A stretch of DNA of 64,000 bases from Verrucomicrobiaceae bacterium UBA1938. GTDB taxonomy: Bacteria > Verrucomicrobiota > Verrucomicrobiia > Verrucomicrobiales > Verrucomicrobiaceae. Location: the NCBI GenBank assembly GCA_002336895.1, contig DDFC01000030.1:47326-111325 (forward strand). The letters run 5' to 3'. The notes under the pieces are model-generated. The model was not told the origin of the DNA and ran no database searches. It saw nothing but the letters and a program-made list of their open reading frames with translations. The translations under genes were made by a program, and so were the position numbers. Positions 37,910 through 47,043 of the stretch are shown one piece after another. The stretch's first letter is position 1, and each line of letters starts with the position of its first letter.

Positions 37910-39190
37910 ATGACTCCCGCGATGCTCAAAGCCGCCCTCATCGCCCAGGCCCGTGCCCTCGGCTTCAGCGACTGCCGCATCGCCCCCGCCCAGCCCGCCG
38001 CCCACCGCGCCCTCTTTGAGCAATGGCTCGCCGAAGGCAAACACGGCGACATGGCTTGGCTCGCCCGCACCCCCGAGCGCCGCACCGATCCCACCCTCGT
38101 CCTCCCCGGCGCCAAATCCGTCATCCTCCTCGCCCTCAACTACTACCAAGGCGGCACCCCCTATCCCCAGGACCAATCTTCCTCCGACTCCTCCTCCCCC
38201 GAGCGCAGCGAGTCCTCCGAAGCTCAAAGAGCGAAGGACGGACCCCCTCCGCCATCCAGCACCGAGCCCCCACCCTCCAGCATCGCCCCATCGCCCTCAC
38301 CTCCGTACTGGGAGCGCCGATATTCTACCGGCTCCGGAAGCCCCGCCACATCCATCCCCTCCGCACCACCCCCAGCCTCCGATCAACCACCGTCAACCAC
38401 CGTCAACAACAGTAAACCACCGTCAACTCCGTTCCGAATAGCCCGCTACGCCTGGAACAACGACTACCACGACCTCATCGAGTCCAAGCTCCGCACCCTC
38501 ACCGACTTCCTCACCGCCCACGGCGGCACCCAGCGTCCTTACGTCGATACCGGCCCCGTCCTCGAGCGCGACTTCGCCAGCCTCGCCGGCCTCGGCTGGG
38601 GAGGCAAAAGCACCATGCAGATCCACCGCCACCTCGGCACCTGGTTCTTCCTGGCCGACATCCTCACCACCCTCGATCTCCCCCCAGACGCCCCCGGCCC
38701 CGACCGCTGTGGCACCTGCACCCGCTGCATCACCGCCTGTCCCACCCAGGCCATCACCGCCCCTCGCAGCCTCGATGCCCGCCGTTGCATCTCCTACCTC
38801 ACCATCGAAAGCAAAGGCCCCATCCCCATCGAATTCCGCCGCGCCATCGGAGACCGCATCTATGGGTGCGATTCCTGCCTCGACGCCTGCCCCTGGAACC
38901 GCCACGCCCAGACCTCCCACGAGGCCACCTTCCAGGCCCGCACCACCATATTCCAGCACACCCTGCGCGACTTCCTCTCTCTCACCGACGACACCTTCCG
39001 CGCCCTCTTCGCCAAATCCCCCATCAAGCGCATCAAACGCCCCGCCTTCCTTCGCAACATCTGCGTCGCCCTCGGCAATGTCGGCACCCCCGCCGACCTC
39101 CCCGCCTTAGAAGCCGCCGCCCAGGACGAGCACCCCCTCATCACCGAACACGCCCAATGGGCCATCGCCGAAATCCGCTCCCGCCACTGA
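37910..39190 (+). CDS. queG: Epoxyqueuosine reductase QueG with in-frame low-complexity insertion
   Basis: G.HG.M.WL, RIARYAW..DYH, VDTGP.LER, CG.C..CI.ACPT and YGCD.C...CPWN Fe-S motifs. Confidence 0.93.
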   Translation: MTPAMLKAALIAQARALGFSDCRIAPAQPAAHRALFEQWLAEGKHGDMAWLARTPERRTDPTLVLPGAKSVILLALNYYQGGTPYPQDQSSSDSSSPERSESSEAQRAKDGPPPPSSTEPPPSSIAPSPSPPYWERRYSTGSGSPATSIPSAPPPASDQPPSTTVNNSKPPSTPFRIARYAWNNDYHDLIESKLRTLTDFLTAHGGTQRPYVDTGPVLERDFASLAGLGWGGKSTMQIHRHLGTWFFLADILTTLDLPPDAPGPDRCGTCTRCITACPTQAITAPRSLDARRCISYLTIESKGPIPIEFRRAIGDRIYGCDSCLDACPWNRHAQTSHEATFQARTTIFQHTLRDFLSLTDDTFRALFAKSPIKRIKRPAFLRNICVALGNVGTPADLPALEAAAQDEHPLITEHAQWAIAEIRSRH

Positions 39191-39804: not shown

Positions 39805-39832
39805 TTGACAGCCCTCCCACCCCTGCTAACAT
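39805..39832 (+). promoter_or_regulatory. Sigma70-type promoter of tRNA-Cys
   Basis: TTGACA-N16-TAACAT with TG extended -10. Confidence 0.7.
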
Positions 39833-39854
39833 CCCTGGCTCTCAATTCGAGAAC

Positions 39855-39929
39855 GGCGAGGTAGCAAAGTGGTAATGCACTGGTCTGCAAAACCGGTATG
39901 CGCGGGTTCAATTCCCGCCCTCGCCTCCA
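39855..39929 (+). tRNA. tRNA-Cys(GCA), copy 1
   Basis: Full cloverleaf, GGCGAGG/CCTCGCC acceptor stem, GCA anticodon, U73, encoded CCA. Confidence 0.95.
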
Positions 39930-39941
39930 CTTCCCGACAAC

Positions 39942-40178
39942 ATGGCTGCCATCCCGGTGGAAGAACTCGTCTATCAGTCAGACCCAGCCTTTTTGAATCG
40001 CATTTTGCTGCTGCCGCCAGAATCCCTGCGCTTGCTCTGCCCTGTCTGCCACGCCCCTCTCTTGTTTGCGCCTACGTGGAAACGCGCCCGCGAGCTGAGA
40101 GTGCATCCGGGAATCTACTGCCAGGTGGACCTCAAACATTGTATCGCGATGTTTGAACTCGCTCCAGAGTCAGAATAA
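39942..40178 (+). CDS. Small hypothetical protein with CPVC...C...HC
   Basis: 78-aa ORF 12 nt after tRNA; possible zinc ribbon. Confidence 0.45.
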   Translation: MAAIPVEELVYQSDPAFLNRILLLPPESLRLLCPVCHAPLLFAPTWKRARELRVHPGIYCQVDLKHCIAMFELAPESE

Positions 40179-40216
40179 CCGGCCAGTCTGGCTGCTTTTC
40201 AACAAACGCAGTCCGC

Positions 40217-40245
40217 TTGACCATGCGTCAAGTTTAGTTTACATA
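40217..40245 (+). promoter_or_regulatory. TA promoter with overlapping palindromic operator
   Basis: TTGAC-CATGC-GTCAA palindrome covering -35 TTGACC; TACATA 17 nt downstream. Confidence 0.6.
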
Positions 40246-40272
40246 TGAGGCGGTCGCTCTACCACCTCCGCT

Positions 40273-40608
40273 GTGCTTCAACCCGGTTCATACGAAGTCC
40301 TCATCTTCCGGCACGCCTCAGATGAAAGCCCCTACCTCGACTGGTTGGAATCTCTCGACTGGAAGATGCAGGAACGCATTTCCTCACGCGTAGCCCGCAT
40401 GAAAAAAGGGCAGTTTGGCGACTGCAAAGCTCTCGCTCCCAGCCTCTACGAACTGCGTCTTTTTTTCGGACCCGGCTACCGGGTTTACTTCGGCCAGCAC
40501 AGGGGCAGGACCATCATCCTCCTCGCCGGCGGAGACAAATCCACCCAGAGCAAAGACATCAAACAAGCCCGCCAATACTGGAAAACATACTTGGAGGACC
40601 ATCCATGA
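40273..40608 (+). CDS. RelE/ParE-superfamily addiction module killer (TIGR02683-like)
   Basis: WLESLD...RI..R..RM..G.FGDCK.....YELR..FGPGYRVYF...LLAGGDKSTQ.KDI..A..YW. Confidence 0.9.
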   Translation: MLQPGSYEVLIFRHASDESPYLDWLESLDWKMQERISSRVARMKKGQFGDCKALAPSLYELRLFFGPGYRVYFGQHRGRTIILLAGGDKSTQSKDIKQARQYWKTYLEDHP

Positions 40609-40958
40609 AAGCATCCAAAAAAACCAGCACCCTCTCCCACGATGAAGTCAGGCTCCGGCACCTCAGCGACCCCAAGCGCGCCAGATACGCCATCAAGCTC
40701 GCCCTCGAAGAGTTCGAGCAGGACAACGACATCGACATGCTGCTCGACACCCTGCGCCTCGTCGCCCAGGCCCAGGGCGGCCTCGCCTCTCTCGCACGCA
40801 AAACAGAAGTCAGCCGCCAGGCCCTGCACGAGGCCCTCTCACCTCAGGGAAACCCGCGCCTGCGCACCTTCCAGAGCGTCCTCGGCTCCCTCGGCCTCCG
40901 CATGTCCGTCAGGCCTGCCCGCCCCACCGCCAAAAAGCCTGCCCGCTCTGCAGCCTGA
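40605..40958 (+). CDS. Addiction module antidote (TIGR02684-like HTH)
   Basis: GGLASLARKTEVSRQALHEALSPQGNPRL.TF..VL.SLG; ATGA overlap with toxin. Confidence 0.9.
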   Translation: MKASKKTSTLSHDEVRLRHLSDPKRARYAIKLALEEFEQDNDIDMLLDTLRLVAQAQGGLASLARKTEVSRQALHEALSPQGNPRLRTFQSVLGSLGLRMSVRPARPTAKKPARSAA

Positions 40959-41000
40959 ACGCACGCTCAGCATGCTTCGCCGCCTTCGCAATTCGAGAAC

Positions 41001-41075
41001 GGCGAGGTAGCAAAGTGGTAATGCACGGGTCTGCAAAACCGGCAGGCGCGGGTTCAATTCCCGCCCTCGCCTCCA
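41001..41075 (+). tRNA. tRNA-Cys(GCA), copy 2 (G28:G42 mismatch, function uncertain)
   Basis: 3 differences from copy 1 over 75 nt. Confidence 0.75.
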
Positions 41076-41113
41076 CTCCACCCCCACAAGCGTTTCACCG
41101 CAGAAAGCCCTCG

Positions 41114-41193
41114 AAGGGAGCGCGGACACTCTTGTCCGCTTCTGCTCTTCAGCAATCAAAGGGAGCGCGGACACTCCTGTCCGCTTCTGCTCT
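41114..41193. repeat. Tandem pair of AAGGGAGCGCGGACACTCYTGTCCGCTTCTGCTCT
   Basis: 35-nt direct repeat with 45-nt period and internal GCGGAC/GTCCGC hairpin. Confidence 0.8.
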
Positions 41194-41226
41194 CCGCAGC
41201 TCTGCTGCCCGTTGATCACTCACTCA

Positions 41227-41312
41227 GTCGCTCGCCGGCGCTCGATTGAAACTCGCATTACAGACCGACACCCTCGTCTTGAAGGCCAACGGCCTTCGTC
41301 TTTCAGCCCAGG
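41227..41312. repeat. Solo fragment homologous to left end of the Y1 element
   Basis: GTCGCTCGCC...GAAAC...GAAGGCCAACGGCCTTC..TTTCAGCCCAGG matches 13282-13359. Confidence 0.75.
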
Positions 41313-41833
41313 AATGCCGCGTGTCCTCCGAAGCTCGTAGAGCGAAGGAGGAAGCTTTAGCGAGTGCTCCCCTGGGCTCCGGCATCCAATCCAGTCAGCA
41401 AACCCAGCCCCCCTCCACACGCCGCCCGGCCCCAGCATGCCTGCCCTTCGTAGCTAGAACTGGTCTATAAGGAAGCACTGAACAAATGAACGCGGAGCAG
41501 TTTGGAAACCGCAGAGCATTGACTTTCAGGCCTCATCTCTGCGGTCTTCTAATCTCTGCGTTGTTAAATCAGTGTTTCCTTGGCAAAGAACGGGCGTCTC
41601 CTCCGCCATAGCGCCGCAGGCCGCCCCACTCTGCGTCCCGCTCTCAAGGCATGGCACCGCCACTCGCCCCCCATCTCCCCACTCGCAGCCACATTGGGGT
41701 TGCCCCACCACCGCACCCTGCGCGGCAAACCTCGCCATCTCCCACGTCCCAGGCTCCTTCCTCAGGCCAAAGCATTACGAAGCTCTGGCAAAAGTGCGAA
41801 CCATGATCTAACTCTCTCACCTCACTGGGTGAT

Positions 41834-42406
41834 ATGAGCAATGCCTACACCGTGCTTTGGAACAGCGACCGCATCAGGATCGCCCGGAAGCACGACCTCA
41901 TCGGCAGGAGCATCGACTTCCTCTTTGGCGGCCCTCACACCACCCAGCCCAGTTTCATCCGCGCCGGCGTCAAGGCCGGAGAGATCATCTATCCCGTTGC
42001 CGTTCGAGACGGCGCCCTTCACATCCTCTCCCAGATACGCATCAGGGCCATCCTCACGGTCGATGACTTCATCGCCGAGCACCCCGATCTCTACCCTCCC
42101 GCAGAGCGTCAGGGGCGGCGGGCCTTCGAGATCCTCGACCTCGGCGTCCAGCTCCACCCCTGGCTGCGCGCCCTCAACTGGACCGGTTCAGATCACGTCT
42201 TGCTCGCACAGAGCTCCACCCCCTTCAGCCTCGAAACCGTCCTCCCCTCCGAGATGCTCACGCGCATGACCCTCCGTTTCAACAAAGTCGAAAGGCCCGT
42301 CAGCGGCGTCGCGGACGGCCGCCTCACCACCACCGTCGGCCTCCAGGGCATCCATCGGTTGTCATTCTCTTCTGCATGGGAGTTTGCCAGCCTGTTTCAG
42401 GCATGA
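41834..42406 (+). CDS. Hypothetical protein
   Basis: 190-aa ORF with host-like C-ending codons between tRNA copies 2 and 3. Confidence 0.65.
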   Translation: MSNAYTVLWNSDRIRIARKHDLIGRSIDFLFGGPHTTQPSFIRAGVKAGEIIYPVAVRDGALHILSQIRIRAILTVDDFIAEHPDLYPPAERQGRRAFEILDLGVQLHPWLRALNWTGSDHVLLAQSSTPFSLETVLPSEMLTRMTLRFNKVERPVSGVADGRLTTTVGLQGIHRLSFSSAWEFASLFQA

Positions 42407-42553
42407 GCCCAGACAGGGAAAGAGTAACGGGGAAAGGAGCGCAAACACGGGAGAGTGAAGCATCGAAAGCACGCGAAGGGAGCGCGGAGATTCGCTTCGC
42501 GGCTGCGTAGCCTCTCCGCGTCGGCTACCATCCCCGTATCTCCATTCAAGAAC

Positions 42554-42605
42554 GGCGAGCTAGCAAAGGGGTAAGGCACGGGTTCTATTCCCGCCCTCGT
42601 CTCTA
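42554..42605 (+). pseudogene. tRNA-Cys pseudogene, copy 3 (anticodon/variable arm deleted)
   Basis: Aligns to copy 2 with a 23-nt deletion between CGGGT direct repeats plus 6 substitutions. Confidence 0.8.
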
Positions 42606-42941
42606 CAAGCATACCTAAGGCTTAGATCTCCCATGCAGGCGCGTTACCATGTTTTGAGCTTATTATAGACGGCTCAGATGTCTTGGTAGCATTCCGAGCG
42701 CGTGACCGTGAGTCTTGAAAAAGATCTCTGTTCAACAGCTGGACATTGACAACTGATTTTCGCGAATTAAAAGTTCGTGGTGATTATCACCCGGGCATCT
42801 GCCGCATTGTATGGAGTTCTTTCGAACACGGTGAAGTTGTAAGCAGTAATGAACATGTAAATGACTGTAATTCTGTCCTATTTTTGTAGGTTTGACTCTG
42901 AGGGGAAGCCGCTCCAAGTTTGGCTAAATATTAGGCCAAAG

Positions 42942-44153
42942 ATGCCGCAGCCTCCACATCGCAAAACCTCCGAAATTCATTCAGCAAAAGCTGCAATGGC
43001 GGGCTTTTTATTCCAGATAGTTCGTGCACTGACTAGAATGGCTGGCGCTAAAGACGGCACCTTCGTTTCGATTGAAACGCTGGACGATGTCGTGGTCGAA
43101 TTTGCAGATGGAACAAAAATTTTGGAGCAAGACAAGCTATCATTCTGTCGGAATCCGGTCCCTGACGGCAGCAAAAATTTCTGGAAAACTCTTAGCATAT
43201 GGATTGGGCTTATTGATGACAAAGAAGTAAGTCTTGAGTTAGCTGACTTCCATTTAGTATCGACCTTCCCGGTAAAAACTGGAATAGCCTCTATGCTTAA
43301 AGCGTGCAGTGCGGACCGTGAGAACGAAAAAATTGTCAAAGAAGTTTTGAAGATCGCCAAAGCACCTGTCGATGAAGTAAAAGAATATGCAGAAATCGTA
43401 GCGGCTTGGCCTCTGGAGAAACTTCGGATGCTGATAGCGCGAATTACAGTGACAGACGACTCGTGTTCGGACAGCAGGGAAGAACTGGCAAACAAACTAA
43501 ACGTGGAAAAAAACATTCGGGATCCCGTTGTTCGAGGACTCATTGGATGGCTCACTGACGCTTTATTTGAGCACTTTGAATTGGCATCCAGCACTTCAAA
43601 TTCAGACGAAGCACTGAAAATTTCCATCGACACATTTCGCGCCGAAACAAACCGGCTAATAGCCACATTTTACAATCGCAAGATTGTGCTTCGAGCGTCA
43701 CAAGACATAATAGCTGAGCAAGAAGATATTGACGCCGAGAAAAATGCGAGATTTGTAAAACAGCTTCAATTGCTAGAGTTTGGAGATGAAGAAGATGAGT
43801 TAGTCATTGAAGCAATTTTAGACTATCTGAAAGCAGACGAAGAAACCACACGCTTAGCAGAGAAAAATGAAATAACCAAAAAGCGGTTTCAGGAATACAA
43901 AGAAAATCTTCGCTCACACTGGAAGTATTGCTGGAGAAAAGCGCGAATTTCTCCGGCCACCACCGAGCACCTTACAGGTCAGTTTATTTTTAACGAGACT
44001 ATGCAAGTCAACATATCGTTGGATGAACTTCCTGTCACACATAGCTACCTCAATCGCGGCACCTATCACGCGATGGCCAATCAACCTGATGCCACCGGAA
44101 TAGGGTGGCACCCCAACTATCAAAAAATCCTAAAGTCGGACGCAAGTGCATGA
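42942..44153 (+). CDS. lmuA: Lamassu/ABC-3C effector LmuA: Cap4-like PD-(D/E)xK nuclease plus C-terminal domain
   Basis: HSA...MAGFLFQ..RAL, IETLDDV...EQDK; C-terminal RGTYHAMAN...IGWHPNY. Confidence 0.72.
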   Translation: MPQPPHRKTSEIHSAKAAMAGFLFQIVRALTRMAGAKDGTFVSIETLDDVVVEFADGTKILEQDKLSFCRNPVPDGSKNFWKTLSIWIGLIDDKEVSLELADFHLVSTFPVKTGIASMLKACSADRENEKIVKEVLKIAKAPVDEVKEYAEIVAAWPLEKLRMLIARITVTDDSCSDSREELANKLNVEKNIRDPVVRGLIGWLTDALFEHFELASSTSNSDEALKISIDTFRAETNRLIATFYNRKIVLRASQDIIAEQEDIDAEKNARFVKQLQLLEFGDEEDELVIEAILDYLKADEETTRLAEKNEITKKRFQEYKENLRSHWKYCWRKARISPATTEHLTGQFIFNETMQVNISLDELPVTHSYLNRGTYHAMANQPDATGIGWHPNYQKILKSDASA

Positions 44154-44616
44154 TATATATGAAATTATGCAAAACCCTGCGCTTGGGTGTTGCTGTATCA
44201 ATAAGTTTGTAGAATCTTTCCACAAGAAAAGGGGATCTGGTCCTCTGCTGCCTTTGGCGGCGTTGGTTTTGCCGATTGTATTCCATAGACGAACCGTTAG
44301 TATTCTTCACAAAAGATACTTCCGAGGGGGATTCCTGAACGCACTTATAGAACACCCAAACTTAGGGGTTGGATTGCAGGAGCGAATGGAAGAAATGGTT
44401 GATCAAACGTTGGCATCAATCGGACTAGGTCTCGGCCTTGGAATGCTTACTTATAATGCAGAAGCATGTACTTTATCTACCGGCGGACAAAGGGTTGAAA
44501 GTTCAAAATTTGCTCCAGCCGTTCGCGATATGCTCTGGACAGCAGATCGTTTGGGTTACTGGATGGCCGATGAACAATTATCAACGATTTGTAGCCATTT
44601 GAACATCACATTCTAA
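44146..44616 (+). CDS. lmuC: Lamassu/ABC-3C middle component LmuC
   Basis: QNPALG, L.LVLPIV.H motifs; 8-nt overlap with effector. Confidence 0.72.
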   Translation: MHDIYEIMQNPALGCCCINKFVESFHKKRGSGPLLPLAALVLPIVFHRRTVSILHKRYFRGGFLNALIEHPNLGVGLQERMEEMVDQTLASIGLGLGLGMLTYNAEACTLSTGGQRVESSKFAPAVRDMLWTADRLGYWMADEQLSTICSHLNITF

Positions 44617-46602
44617 ATGAATATTAAAATTCGTAGCATCATCTTGTGGCCTAAAAACCCTCAGAACGAGATCCGAAGAATTGATTTCAAATGCAAAGGG
44701 GTCGAGGTAATTTCTGGGTGGAGCGAAAAGGGAAAGTCTTCCATTATTCATATAATAGACTACTGCTTAGGAAGCGAAAAGTGCGCTATTCCAATTGGTA
44801 AGGTCCGCGAGACTGTAGAATGGTTTGGAATCCTTCTGGCGCTGCCAAATGGGAAACAGATTTTGAGCGCTCGACTGAATCCAGGCGAGAGCCAAGAAAA
44901 CTCTGATATGATGTTTGTAGAGGGAAAAAGAATATCTATTCCTGATCAGCCTACCAAGACTCATAGGAGGGATACTGTAATTTCTGCTTTGGACAAGCTT
45001 GCAAAGTTGCCCCAACGAGGTGCCGCTGAAGAAGAAGGGTCTGATTCGGAAGGCCCTCCAAGTTTCAGAGATATGGCAGCATTCAATTTTCAACCGCAGA
45101 ATGTTGTGGCCAACCCTAATATTTTGTTTTTTAAATCTGAGCTCTGGGAACATCGACGGAAGCTGACTAGAAGTGTGCTTCCATACGTGCTAGGGGCCGT
45201 CGATGCGGAAACTTTAGATTATCAATCAAGATACCGCATCATTGAGACGAAGCTGCGTCTTAAACGCGAAGAGCTTGATCTAAAACAAAGAGCGATGGAA
45301 TCTCTAGTTGCAGGACTTAGATCTCACTTTCGCACCGCACAAGCGAATGAACTCATTCCAGAAGGCATTAGTCCCACAGTTGAGTGGGGTCCTCAAGATT
45401 TCGTTCAGCATCTACGAGAAGCTTTAAAGACTTGGAAGAGCACACCTGCTTTATCTTCTCTCGGATCCATGACAAGAAAAGCACGTGCAGAGGTCAGCGC
45501 ATTGCAAAAGTCACAGAAGATTTTAATCCGTGAGATCGATGACTTAAATAGGCAAATATCAAAAACGGAGCGAGTTTCGGAGTCATTTGGGGGATATGCT
45601 GAAAGCTTAAAAGATCAATCGGCGCGAGTATTTCCTGCAGGATGGCTCCACACTTACTTTACCGAGCATTTTGCCTGTCCTATATGTAATGGACCTCAAC
45701 CTCGAAAAGGTGAATTCGATAGGCTTGTCTACGTTGCAAAAAAATTAGGAGAAACCGTTCAAGCTGTTTCGCAAGGTGCCCCTGTATTGACTGCGGAGAA
45801 GCGTAGGCTGGAGCGTTTGCTCGATGAGTCGGAAAATAAGTTGCAGGCTATTGATGTTCAATTAAACGATTGGGAAAAGCGTTCTGCGGAGCTGGCGGAA
45901 CTTGGAAGTCGGAGGGATTTTCTCAACACATTTACGGGGCGTTTGGGTTCAGAACTGGACGCTATAGACGCTGGCGGTGTTACTGCTCTTGAGAATGAAG
46001 TGAAGTCGATGGAAAGGGAACTAAGGTTATTGGCAGTCAAAATTAACCCAGAACGCATTCGCTCAAAGACTGAGAAGGCGCTCAAATCGATCTCAAAAAG
46101 TATAGCGCACTACGCGCGGGCCATGCAGGTTGGGCATTCATCTCAAGAATGGGTGATCGATGAAAGAAATCTCACGCTTGTTTCGCATAAGCCAGGAAGA
46201 AATGACTATCTCTGGGAAATCGGAAGCGCTGCCAATTGGATGGGATATCACATTGCTACTCTTCTTGCCATGCACGAATTTTTCAGGACCGTGCCAGAAA
46301 ATCCCGTTCCGAAATTCATTGTATTCGATCAGCCGAGCCAAGCTTATTTTCCCGAGGGCCTAGGAAAAAAGGGGGGCAAGAAAACGCAAGAGCTAATCCG
46401 AACTCGCTCCGATGATATAAGTAGGCTTAAGCGGCTCTTTCTTGCGCTCTCTGATGCAGTTACGAGAACCAATGGAGGACTTCAGATAATTCTGCTCGAA
46501 CACGCGGAACCAGAAATGTGGGAGGGCATTCCCAATTTTTCGCTCGTTGAAAATGTTGAGTGGAGAGACCGCGGAGCGCTAATACCTGACAGCTGGAAAT
46601 AG
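44617..46602 (+). CDS. lmuB: Lamassu SMC/Rad50-like ABC ATPase LmuB (DUF3732-type)
   Basis: Walker A G.SEKGKS, IIDYCLGS, coiled coil with CPIC hook, GSAANW signature, Walker B FDQPSQAYFP. Confidence 0.82.
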   Translation: MNIKIRSIILWPKNPQNEIRRIDFKCKGVEVISGWSEKGKSSIIHIIDYCLGSEKCAIPIGKVRETVEWFGILLALPNGKQILSARLNPGESQENSDMMFVEGKRISIPDQPTKTHRRDTVISALDKLAKLPQRGAAEEEGSDSEGPPSFRDMAAFNFQPQNVVANPNILFFKSELWEHRRKLTRSVLPYVLGAVDAETLDYQSRYRIIETKLRLKREELDLKQRAMESLVAGLRSHFRTAQANELIPEGISPTVEWGPQDFVQHLREALKTWKSTPALSSLGSMTRKARAEVSALQKSQKILIREIDDLNRQISKTERVSESFGGYAESLKDQSARVFPAGWLHTYFTEHFACPICNGPQPRKGEFDRLVYVAKKLGETVQAVSQGAPVLTAEKRRLERLLDESENKLQAIDVQLNDWEKRSAELAELGSRRDFLNTFTGRLGSELDAIDAGGVTALENEVKSMERELRLLAVKINPERIRSKTEKALKSISKSIAHYARAMQVGHSSQEWVIDERNLTLVSHKPGRNDYLWEIGSAANWMGYHIATLLAMHEFFRTVPENPVPKFIVFDQPSQAYFPEGLGKKGGKKTQELIRTRSDDISRLKRLFLALSDAVTRTNGGLQIILLEHAEPEMWEGIPNFSLVENVEWRDRGALIPDSWK

Positions 46603-46714
46603 TTGGCAGGACGCCCTCGGAAAGTGTCTGGCAGTTTGCACGCATGGTGAACGCACAACCACGAACCCTCGATCAATTGTACTATTCGCTGGTTTCTAGA
46701 TGAGGCTCAAAAGT

Positions 46715-46745
46715 AAGGCTCGGCGTTTTGTGAACGCCGAGCCTT
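46715..46745. terminator. Perfect 13-bp hairpin downstream of Lamassu operon
   Basis: AAGGCTCGGCGTT-TTGTG-AACGCCGAGCCTT. Confidence 0.5.
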
Positions 46746-47043
46746 CGTCCGCGAGATCTTCTCGATCTCAATTTTGTCCTCAGTAGGATCAGTTCTTCTA
46801 AAAACGAATTGAAGCTTTGCGATAAAGCTTCAATCTGATTTTAAAAGGACCGACCTTGATTAGGAGGTATGTCTTTTGTGACAGGGTCACAGTTCAAAAT
46901 TGCATCTTTTCCATTCAGGGCAATATTTTTTGCGCCGCTCCCTTTGACTGGGAAAACGAACCGCCAGTCTCGGAATCTTCGACGCCCCAGCCGCGAGGTC
47001 TCTCGCGGTGCGCCACCCAACATCGCCTTCACAACGCCCCGCC

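Follow-up and report, generated by a model that had tools for sequence, protein, structure and literature searches.

Evidence for a two-slot toxin–antitoxin and defence hotspot at a Prosthecobacter tRNA-Cys locus partitioned by whole-gene tRNA pseudo-copies

Core defence hotspots bounded by core genes and by tRNA or tmRNA genes have been described in Pseudomonas aeruginosa (cDHS1 and cDHS2; PMC10250203) and, at tRNA loci, in Escherichia coli (PMC10121019), and they have been proposed to be transferred through their flanks by homologous recombination (PMC10250203). In Prochlorococcus, tycheposon remnants have been described as the tandem accretion of tRNA-targeting elements, with integrase-less derivatives among them (10.1101/2020.12.28.424599). 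Here, we analyzed the tRNA-Cys locus in a 64,000-nt stretch of the genome of Verrucomicrobiaceae bacterium UBA1938 (assembly GCA_002336895.1, contig DDFC01000030.1, positions 47,326 to 111,325), which we call the window, together with related loci in the genus Prosthecobacter (Verrucomicrobiaceae). The comparison set consisted of 105 Prosthecobacter genomes, of which 97 had a tRNA-Cys match; many of these relatives are fragmented metagenome-assembled genomes, with contigs broken at the tRNA. The locus is a tRNA-anchored hotspot with two slots for toxin–antitoxin (TA) and defence genes, situated between queG/tRNA-Cys and a cupin gene and variable across the genus, and the comparison indicates that TA and anti-phage genes have been swapped between species at this site.

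Like the core defence hotspots, this locus has fixed flanks, a non-coding RNA gene at its edge and many defence systems at one site, and it is not tied to one family of mobile elements. Its conserved flanks, namely queG/tRNA-Cys/orf190 on one side and the cupin gene on the other, enclose variable and defence-rich cargo, with at least eight different cargos across genomes, most of which are known or candidate defence systems. Unlike those hotspots, it is subdivided by whole tRNA-unit pseudo-copies and a resident gene, orf190, into a small TA slot and a defence slot, and it occurs in Verrucomicrobia. Tycheposons and streptococcal cis-mobilizable elements (CIMEs) are similar to it in having newcomers by the intact tRNA gene, older material in a distal position, tRNA-derived repeats between the units and some units without an integrase. 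However, their repeats are partial tRNA 3' ends that form attachment-site (att) identity blocks, whereas here whole genes with their leader are repeated, and in relatives the promoter and terminator as well; furthermore, the array in the window contains no integrase or integrase remnant, and the age of its cargo is independent of position. Integrons also carry promoter-proximal cargo units separated by a recurring sequence. Like the cargo of chromosomal superintegrons, the cargo here includes many TA and defence genes. In contrast to integrons, the locus has no IntI, attI or attC, its units probably have promoters of their own and may be multi-gene, and the recurring sequence is a decaying tRNA gene. 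Finally, Zhao and Williams reportedly described in 2002 integrative elements, of reverse orientation, that replace the 5' part and the promoter of a tRNA gene. The duplicated material at our locus likewise takes in the leader/promoter side of the tRNA, but those elements combine an upstream 5' fragment with an integrase, whereas here the copy lying upstream is a complete one that retains its ancestral promoter context, and the duplication takes in both ends of the gene. What is distinctive here is the use of whole-gene (promoter-to-terminator) pseudo-copies as partitions, the division into two slots with a resident gene of predicted PUA-like fold, and the taxon.

The genome containing the window is 6.87 Mb in size with a GC content of ~63%. 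The anatomy of the locus was observed directly, and its main features are given below by their positions in the window. Related genomes and loci are cited by our codes, among which L156 corresponds to G120, L051 to G001, L050 and L161 to G047, and L074 to G055.

37910-39190, plus strand: queG-like gene (up426), the conserved left flank, identified by synteny with tRNA-Cys.
39805-39832, plus strand: sigma-70-type promoter of copy 1, TTGACA-16-TAACAT (promoter scan, 10/12 matches, extended -10 TG).
39843-39929, plus strand: copy 1 (T1), a 12-nt leader and a predicted functional tRNA-Cys(GCA) gene at 39855-39929 (ARAGORN; Rfam, 70.6 bits).
39942-40178, plus strand: cys78, a small Cys-rich protein of 78 aa and the first part of slot 1 (open reading frame, ORF; homologues).
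40273-40608, plus strand: toxin, a Gp49/HigB-like addiction-module killer (PF05973, 27.3 bits with a cut-off of 23.9; phrog_3445 "toxin," 1.5e-27).
40605-40958, plus strand: antidote, an HI1420-type helix-turn-helix (HTH) antitoxin (PF21716, 38.9 bits with a cut-off of 27; phrog_4268 "transcriptional repressor").
40989-41075, plus strand: copy 2 (T2), a leader and a whole tRNA-Cys at 41001-41075, a chimeric pseudo- or spare copy (ARAGORN; Rfam, 65.4 bits).
41834-42406, plus strand: orf190 (190 aa), a conserved resident gene (homologues at the locus).
42542-42605, plus strand: copy 3 (T3), a leader and a decayed pseudo-copy at 42554-42605 with a 23-nt deletion (alignment).
42606-46970, plus strand: AT-rich Lamassu island with LmuA at 42861-44153, LmuC at 44146-44616 and LmuB at 44617-46602 (PADLOC, Pfam; ends from the alignment with G120).
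47044-47982, minus strand: cupin-domain gene, which is conserved and bounds the variable region on the right (PF07883).

A preliminary description of the window had reported three tRNA-Cys copies, each with its 5' leader, and ARAGORN, Rfam and alignment confirmed them as same-strand tRNA-Cys(GCA) sequences with a 12-nt leader; the slot contents it gave (a Cys protein and a TA pair, then repeats and a gene, then an AT-rich Lamassu) also agreed with the results of Pfam, PADLOC and GC analysis. Both gene ends and the leader, which reads CAATTCGAGAAC in copies 1 and 2 and CCATTCAAGAAC in copy 3, are present at three places in the window and at no others (0 expected in shuffles), and the 6.87-Mb genome contains no further tRNA-Cys sequences. 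Copy 1, with a complete cloverleaf and its own predicted promoter, has the properties of a functional tRNA-Cys gene, and it is this intact gene that is kept at the promoter-proximal junction. Its body is identical to T1 of the aligned relatives, T1 matches throughout the genus are 96-100% identical, and its promoter sequence is kept upstream of T1 in G120, L047 and L166. The scan predicted no promoter ahead of copies 2 and 3. Copy 2, in which the repeat extends from -12 to +77, has three substitutions relative to copy 1, namely T>G at linear position 27 (the G28:G42 mismatch in canonical numbering), T>C at 43 and T>G at 45. Its cloverleaf is complete but includes one non-canonical G:G pair in the anticodon stem (Rfam). 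In copy 3, the repeat extends from the promoter -10 to the 3' end, with a -10-like TACCAT box retained upstream; it has the 23-nt internal gap and further substitutions, and neither ARAGORN nor Rfam calls a tRNA there any longer. Nevertheless, both tRNA ends could be matched in it with 3 mismatches in 26, when 0 such matches were expected in shuffles. The earlier suggestion that this deletion arose between CGGGT repeats of a copy-2-like (G27) allele was borne out by the undeleted relatives of copy 3 in G048, G047 and G014, which carry the CACGGGT allele.

The closest relative, G120, with ~96% nucleotide identity in the flanks, provided a direct empty-site comparison. The order in this genome is queG, promoter, one tRNA-Cys, a repetitive extragenic palindromic (REP)-like element, repeat R, orf190 (98% aa identity), a whole but decayed copy 3, 5.4 kb of AT-rich cargo, the cupin gene and FGE. 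Because the single tRNA-Cys of G120 is flanked upstream as copy 1 is and downstream as copy 2 is, the window corresponds to G120 plus exactly 1,146 bp, which comprises a tRNA unit, cys78 and the TA pair. A difference of this kind would be the expected product of recombination between direct repeats (a loss) or of Campbell-type insertion (a gain). The distal cargo of G120 is a PDC-M60 candidate system (PADLOC; L156, 10054-15267, minus strand), the three genes of which encode a 1187-aa kinase-like protein, a receiver, and a receiver fused to a PNP-type effector (nucleosidase); we take this system to resemble Detocs. The PDC-M60 and Lamassu blocks share both junctions, directly after the copy 3 end ...CTC(T/C)AC and before CGGAATCTTCGACGCCCC, and no motif common to the cargo ends of the window and G120 was found. 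Because G120 has copy 3 but other cargo behind it, copy 3 is older than the split between the window and G120, and the cargo behind it is not. The Lamassu, which differs from the G120 cargo and is unameliorated at 45% GC, is therefore at least as recent as slot 1.

These results bear on an integron-like platform, as proposed in the preliminary description, in which cassettes are added serially beside the promoter, the tRNA and its leader form the recombination unit, and the most distal cargo is the oldest. The numbers and contents of the slots do vary, three lineages (the window, the G067 type and the L048/L049 type) have new small cassettes on the promoter-proximal side, with a perfect copy 1 before them and an older copy after them, and the tRNA promoter faces slot 1 and would read into it, with no terminator predicted between copy 1 and cys78. 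However, the age of the cargo is decoupled from its position, since PDC-M60 occupies in G120 the very junctions that Lamassu occupies in the window, and the order of the copies thus does not date the cargo. Neither an IntI-type gene on the contig (PF00589 search) nor attC-like inverted repeats at the slot ends (repeat search) were detected, and species differ in where the left junction of the distal slot lies. The TA module, moreover, moves alone to sites free of tRNA. Together with the history of the pseudo-copies given below, these observations make such a platform the least probable of the explanations we considered.

The history of the copies was examined by aligning the second copies of 11 loci (the window, G120, G048, G047, G014, G001, G067, L048, L049, L057 and L166). 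Three derived bases were found in these copies, G16 in 9/11, G27 in 7/9 and G45 in 8/9, and at least 10 other species share these bases of the pseudo-copy lineage. The second copy lies after orf190 in G014, G001, G047, G048, G120 and L166 and before it in G067, L048 and L049; because the derived bases are shared whichever side of orf190 the copy is on, they point to a single old pseudo-copy lineage that is present across the genus, and copies 2 and 3 belong to it. The T3 lineage was also seen in G048, G047, G014 and L166, and G120 has an undeleted orthologue of copy 3. Copy 2 is chimeric, resembling T1 at position 16 and the pseudo-copies at positions 27 and 45. Among the 97 genomes with a match, ~12 carry an extra whole or nearly whole tRNA-Cys copy; apparent second perfect copies in G112, G089 and G016 were set aside, as they lie at or within ~2 kb of contig ends.

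The boundaries of the duplications vary by event. The repeat begins at -12 in the window; in G067, T1 and T2 are homologous for at least 36 nt upstream; and in G047, T1 and T3 are homologous from ~-30 (the -10 box) to ~+30 past the CCA (the terminator hairpin). Because promoter and terminator are included, the duplicates represent a duplicated chromosomal transcription unit and not an element-borne att/attP. The leaders co-vary within genomes, being of the GCAT type in both copies of G001 and G067 and of the GAAC type in both copies of G014, G047 and the window, which indicates concerted evolution, either by gene conversion or by repeated recombination between the copies. Conservation of the leader extends to functional tRNA-Cys genes across the genus, including ones in other contexts (G118). 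Two further elements of the integron-like proposal are thus unsupported. First, pseudo-copies that are old, shared, placed before or after orf190 according to the species, and in some cases equipped with promoter and terminator would not have been delivered with the present cargo. Second, a leader that is conserved in functional genes whatever their context does not mark a recombination unit, and the unequal boundaries do not define one either. RNA-mediated (retro) duplication of the tRNA precursor, an idea prompted by the 12-nt leader of copy 2 beginning near the predicted transcription start, was rejected, because copy 3 and the second copies of G067 and G047 include promoter sequence. Better conservation of the att block (the 3' third) in the pseudo-copies was also considered as a sign of repeated site-specific refreshment, but the difference was not significant (Fisher p = 0.29, nine copies pooled).

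We also compared the distal slot among species. The Lamassu block of the window has a GC content of 45% (range 42-49%) compared with ~63% for the genome. The PADLOC E-values were 1.1e-49 for LmuA, 3.4e-06 for LmuC and 7.6e-115 for LmuB, and the Pfam matches were CTD7, MC3 and DUF3732; from these matches, the three-gene operon has the composition of a Lamassu (ABC-3C) system, with LmuA as the predicted effector, LmuB as an SMC-like ATPase with DUF3732 and LmuC as the middle component. The ends of the island could not be defined from close relatives of the system elsewhere, because the nearest LmuB in the species-representative genomes is 49% identical. The cargo found behind orf190 or the pseudo-copy in other genomes consists of Hachiman (G014), a TIR-NACHT-FGE STAND protein (G001), dCTP deaminase (G088), Schlafen/AlbA (G067 and L049), a kinase-STAND protein (L048), an alpha/beta hydrolase (G047), HEPN-RES (L166) and the PDC-M60 genes of G120. 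This turnover was observed directly between fixed flanks: on the left, up426 is syntenic with tRNA-Cys in G014, G012, G001, G004, G007, G006 and G120, and its L166 orthologue matches PF08331 (QueG_DUF1730); on the right of the cargo, cupin homologues with 94-99% aa identity are present in five genomes (L048, L049, L050, G120 and L166). The site is therefore a variable TA/defence hotspot, as the preliminary description supposed, with slot number and content differing among relatives; an arrangement identical in all of them, which would have refuted that description, was not observed. In addition, the G001 protein (L051, 8613-11381, minus strand; 922 aa), located in the defence slot, combines TIR and NACHT domains with a C-terminal FGE-sulfatase-like domain, an unusual STAND architecture in which the place of the sensor is taken by an FGE-type domain.

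The left junctions of the distal slot differ by species: some are 17-65 nt past the orf190 stop, and others fall within the pseudo-copy (at nt 20) or at its 3' end. This heterogeneity fits poorly with a single site-specific enzyme. As regards the right side, a conserved element of ~75 nt (...ccaggcattcagcccactcctgtca...caccaacacacaccggaat) precedes the 3' end of the cupin gene in three genomes (G047, L048 and L049). The same element follows the TA module before FGE in G055 (L074), and it is missing from the window and G120, which have 66 other nucleotides in its place.

The preliminary description had noted the lack of an integrase in the array, and no PF00589 match was in fact found on the window's contig (C31); the eight matches in the genome are all on other contigs, no tyrosine recombinase lies within 6 kb of any tRNA in the genome, and all sizeable ORFs between 39.8 and 47 kb were assigned to something other than an integrase. 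When set against the island scheme of Williams (2002), the locus has the intact promoter-proximal tRNA, but neither an integrase at an att junction nor a partial-tRNA repeat. In the genus as a whole, about 25/97 genomes carry a 30-36-nt copy of the tRNA-Cys 3' end (query positions 55/58-90), and where the loci were inspected (L077, L049, L054 and L160), a PF00589 integrase gene lies directly beside this short repeat. From these repeats, ordinary tRNA-Cys-specific integrase islands exist in the genus, land in copy 1 of other species and leave partial att repeats, but no such island is present in the genome of the window. The whole-gene copies in the window differ in kind from these 30-36-nt scars, in agreement with the earlier remark that they are unlike the usual partial att.

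Given the frequency of these islands at tRNA-Cys, each slot might be the remnant of a conventional integrase island in a tRNA-Cys copy, the integrase and attR having been deleted later. The Lamassu block, which is foreign in composition and begins exactly at the 3' end of copy 3, would suit this explanation. However, conventional events leave 30-36-nt 3' fragments and not whole genes with leader and promoter, identical right-junction deletions would have had to occur independently in the window and G120, and slot 1 is host-like in GC and made of modules found elsewhere in the genus. We consequently regard eroded islands as very unlikely.

In our preferred reading, to which we assign a probability of roughly 0.58, the locus has been remodelled by homologous recombination and gene conversion between the tRNA repeats, with exchange of cargo via the flanks. 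Copy 1 would be the working gene. Copies 2 and 3 would trace back to an ancient duplicate of this transcription unit, which has been undergoing pseudogene decay in many species. Portable homology would be supplied by direct repeats of 90-140 bp and by the conserved flanks (queG, orf190 and cupin); RecA-type general recombination and gene conversion between the repeats would delete, re-create and homogenize slots, and in exchanges between strains the cargo would be swapped as alleles between the flanks. The proximal slot would thereby gather small host-like modules, and the slot behind the distal pseudo-copy would act as the defence hotspot, here with a foreign AT-rich Lamassu. This reading is suggested by a clean indel of one repeat with its slot, by the chimeric make-up of copy 2 and the derived bases shared among second copies, by leaders that co-vary within genomes, by duplicates that take in promoter and terminator, by junctions that differ among species, by the lack of a recombinase and by the turnover of distal cargo between fixed flanks, as well as by the different nature of the relatives' integrase islands, with their 30-36-nt 3' repeats and adjacent integrase. 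From this evidence, we infer that host homologous recombination, rather than a site-specific enzyme, carried out the exchanges.

Several points weigh against this reading. First, the recombination pathway itself is reconstructed indirectly, as are the first duplication of the tRNA unit and the direction of the 1,146-bp difference (a gain here or a loss in G120). Second, the distal junctions of the window and G120 are identical although their cargos are unrelated, and exchange through the flanks only pushes this question back. One of these shared junctions is the exact 3' end of copy 3, the usual joining point of site-specific elements; the cargos of the window, of G120 and of G014 all join exactly at the 3' end of the pseudo-copy, and that of G001 joins at the equivalent point of its decayed copy. 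Third, the three copy-2-specific bases all lie 5' of the 30-36-nt integrase block, as a crossover within an integrase core would predict.

The second and third points would be accounted for by a CIME-like mechanism, in which integrase-less slots between att-containing tRNA copies are moved in trans by a tRNA-Cys-specific integrase of a co-resident or visiting island. Whole-gene repeats would persist, because a circle excised between two such copies would carry a whole hybrid copy. Slot 1 fits this anatomy in that it encodes only cys78 and the TA pair and has at both ends repeats containing the integrase block, which (T-arm to 3' end) is present in every whole copy. A supply of enzymes is also conceivable, because tRNA-Cys integrase islands are common in the genus and the genome of the window has integrases 46-49% identical to that of L077 and a fragment 91% identical to its C-terminus. 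The stacking of tRNA elements, with newcomers displacing older ones distally, is documented for tycheposons (10.1101/2020.12.28.424599). On the other hand, none of these integrases is near a tRNA or on the window's contig; the right ends of the Lamassu block (searched with <=3 mismatches in 26, or 2 in 14) and of the G120 cargo contained no attR-type tRNA 3' fragment; the distal junctions differ among species; a VapBC cassette occurs with or without a following tRNA copy (L052 vs L077); and host promoter and terminator sequence lies within the duplicates. On balance, we consider this mechanism rather unlikely, though a serious competitor of recombination between the repeats. A bolder extension is that the pseudo-copies are reusable attachment sites, at which any visiting tRNA-Cys integrase could excise, reorder and insert integrase-less TA/defence cassettes. 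We consider this improbable; if it were true, Verrucomicrobia would have a functional analogue of the integron built on a tRNA gene.

We next consider the contents of slot 1. The cys78 gene starts 13 nt past the tRNA 3' end, and its product has the motif CxxC (CPVC) ... C ... C. No Pfam, PHROG or PADLOC match was obtained for it, and an exact-sequence look-up in public assemblies returned no record. Homologues with 54-59% aa identity occur in three other species (G087, G103 and G055; L162-L164), away from tRNA-Cys copies; accordingly, cys78 is a real, conserved small protein, which we regard as Zn-ribbon-like. The small toxin and the downstream HTH antidote, the gene of which overlaps the toxin stop by 4 nt, both match family models and have the arrangement of a putative type II TA system. 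This TA module (~40178-40972) recurs at 80-83% nucleotide identity in five other species without tRNA flanks (L070-L075), and it carries its own conserved upstream region of 85-160 nt. The module consists of two genes and no integrase, yet it is found relocated among different neighbours across species, which are of four kinds (cupin, FGE, an o490 homologue and tRNA-Cys). Since homologues of both the TA module and cys78 are present elsewhere in the genus, slot 1 is assembled from host-genus modules, and its host-like GC is consistent with this.

In other genomes, the proximal slot is either empty or differently occupied. Nothing lies between the working gene or 3' fragment and orf190 in L047, L053, L055, L056 and L051. 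A VapBC pair is present in G067 and L077, a 209-aa unknown protein in L048 and L049, a DUF6036 nucleotidyltransferase in L054, and 6.8 kb of other genes in G047.

Slot 2 contains two further features in addition to orf190.

41103-41660, plus strand: REP-like hairpin doublet (41103-41193) and dispersed repeat R (41245-41660, with a nested 156-bp repeat at 41438-41593), found by repeat search.
41733-41810, plus strand: 3'-end remnant of a DUF6036 nucleotidyltransferase gene (87% nucleotide identity to the end of the L054 gene).

The REP-like hairpin element (AAGGGAGCGCGGACACTC-TGTCCGCTTCTGCTCT) forms a tandem doublet after copy 2 and is present as a single copy in G120; related copies are at 42465-42493 and 46936-46950, and others are scattered over the genome. 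Partial copies of repeat R occur on many contigs of the genome, and R also follows orf190 or T' in L049, L050 and L052; as a dispersed repeat, it was uninformative as a positional marker for a tandem-duplication model. The intact DUF6036 gene (PF19502, 182 aa) precedes orf190 in L054 (1837-2385), and ~80 nt of its 3' end survive upstream of orf190 in the window, L047 and L166. This arrangement suggests an ancestral two-gene nucleotidyltransferase-orf190 module.

The orf190 gene, described at first as an orphan, belongs to a family of 22 homologues (representatives of 90%-identity clusters, E <= 0.001). In at least 12 Prosthecobacter genomes, its homologues adjoin tRNA-Cys copies, with 81-98% aa identity, and the gene is also found in Brevifollis, there without a nearby tRNA. 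The homologues with a named source are from Verrucomicrobiaceae, except for a 37%-identical protein of Streptomyces virginiae, and there is in addition an unnamed match of 31%. The Streptomyces homologue is placed between a WYL regulator and an S1-domain gene. An exact look-up of orf190 returned only one Logan contig (SRR770019), which is 100% identical to the window over 7,081 nt. No Pfam domain was found in orf190; its AlphaFold2 (AF2) model is confident, with a pLDDT of 93, and the best PDB folds were those of the modified-base readers EVE, YTH and ASCH, all with weak matches (E 6e-3, TM 0.42-0.52), so the fold is tentatively predicted to be PUA-like (EVE/YTH/ASCH-like). As no recombinase fold was among the matches, the possibility that orf190 is a hidden recombinase was ruled out.

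The locus reveals no new recombination machine. What it offers is a well-resolved case of defence-hotspot organization outside the model Proteobacteria, in which an essential single-copy tRNA, decaying whole-gene copies of it and a resident gene are combined with two kinds of cargo. Given the empty-site comparison with G120 and the list of cargos, the region is a practical site for mining Prosthecobacter genomes for new defence genes. It also provides a clean natural setting in which to ask whether integrase-free exchange of cargo at tRNA loci proceeds by host recombination or by borrowed integrases.

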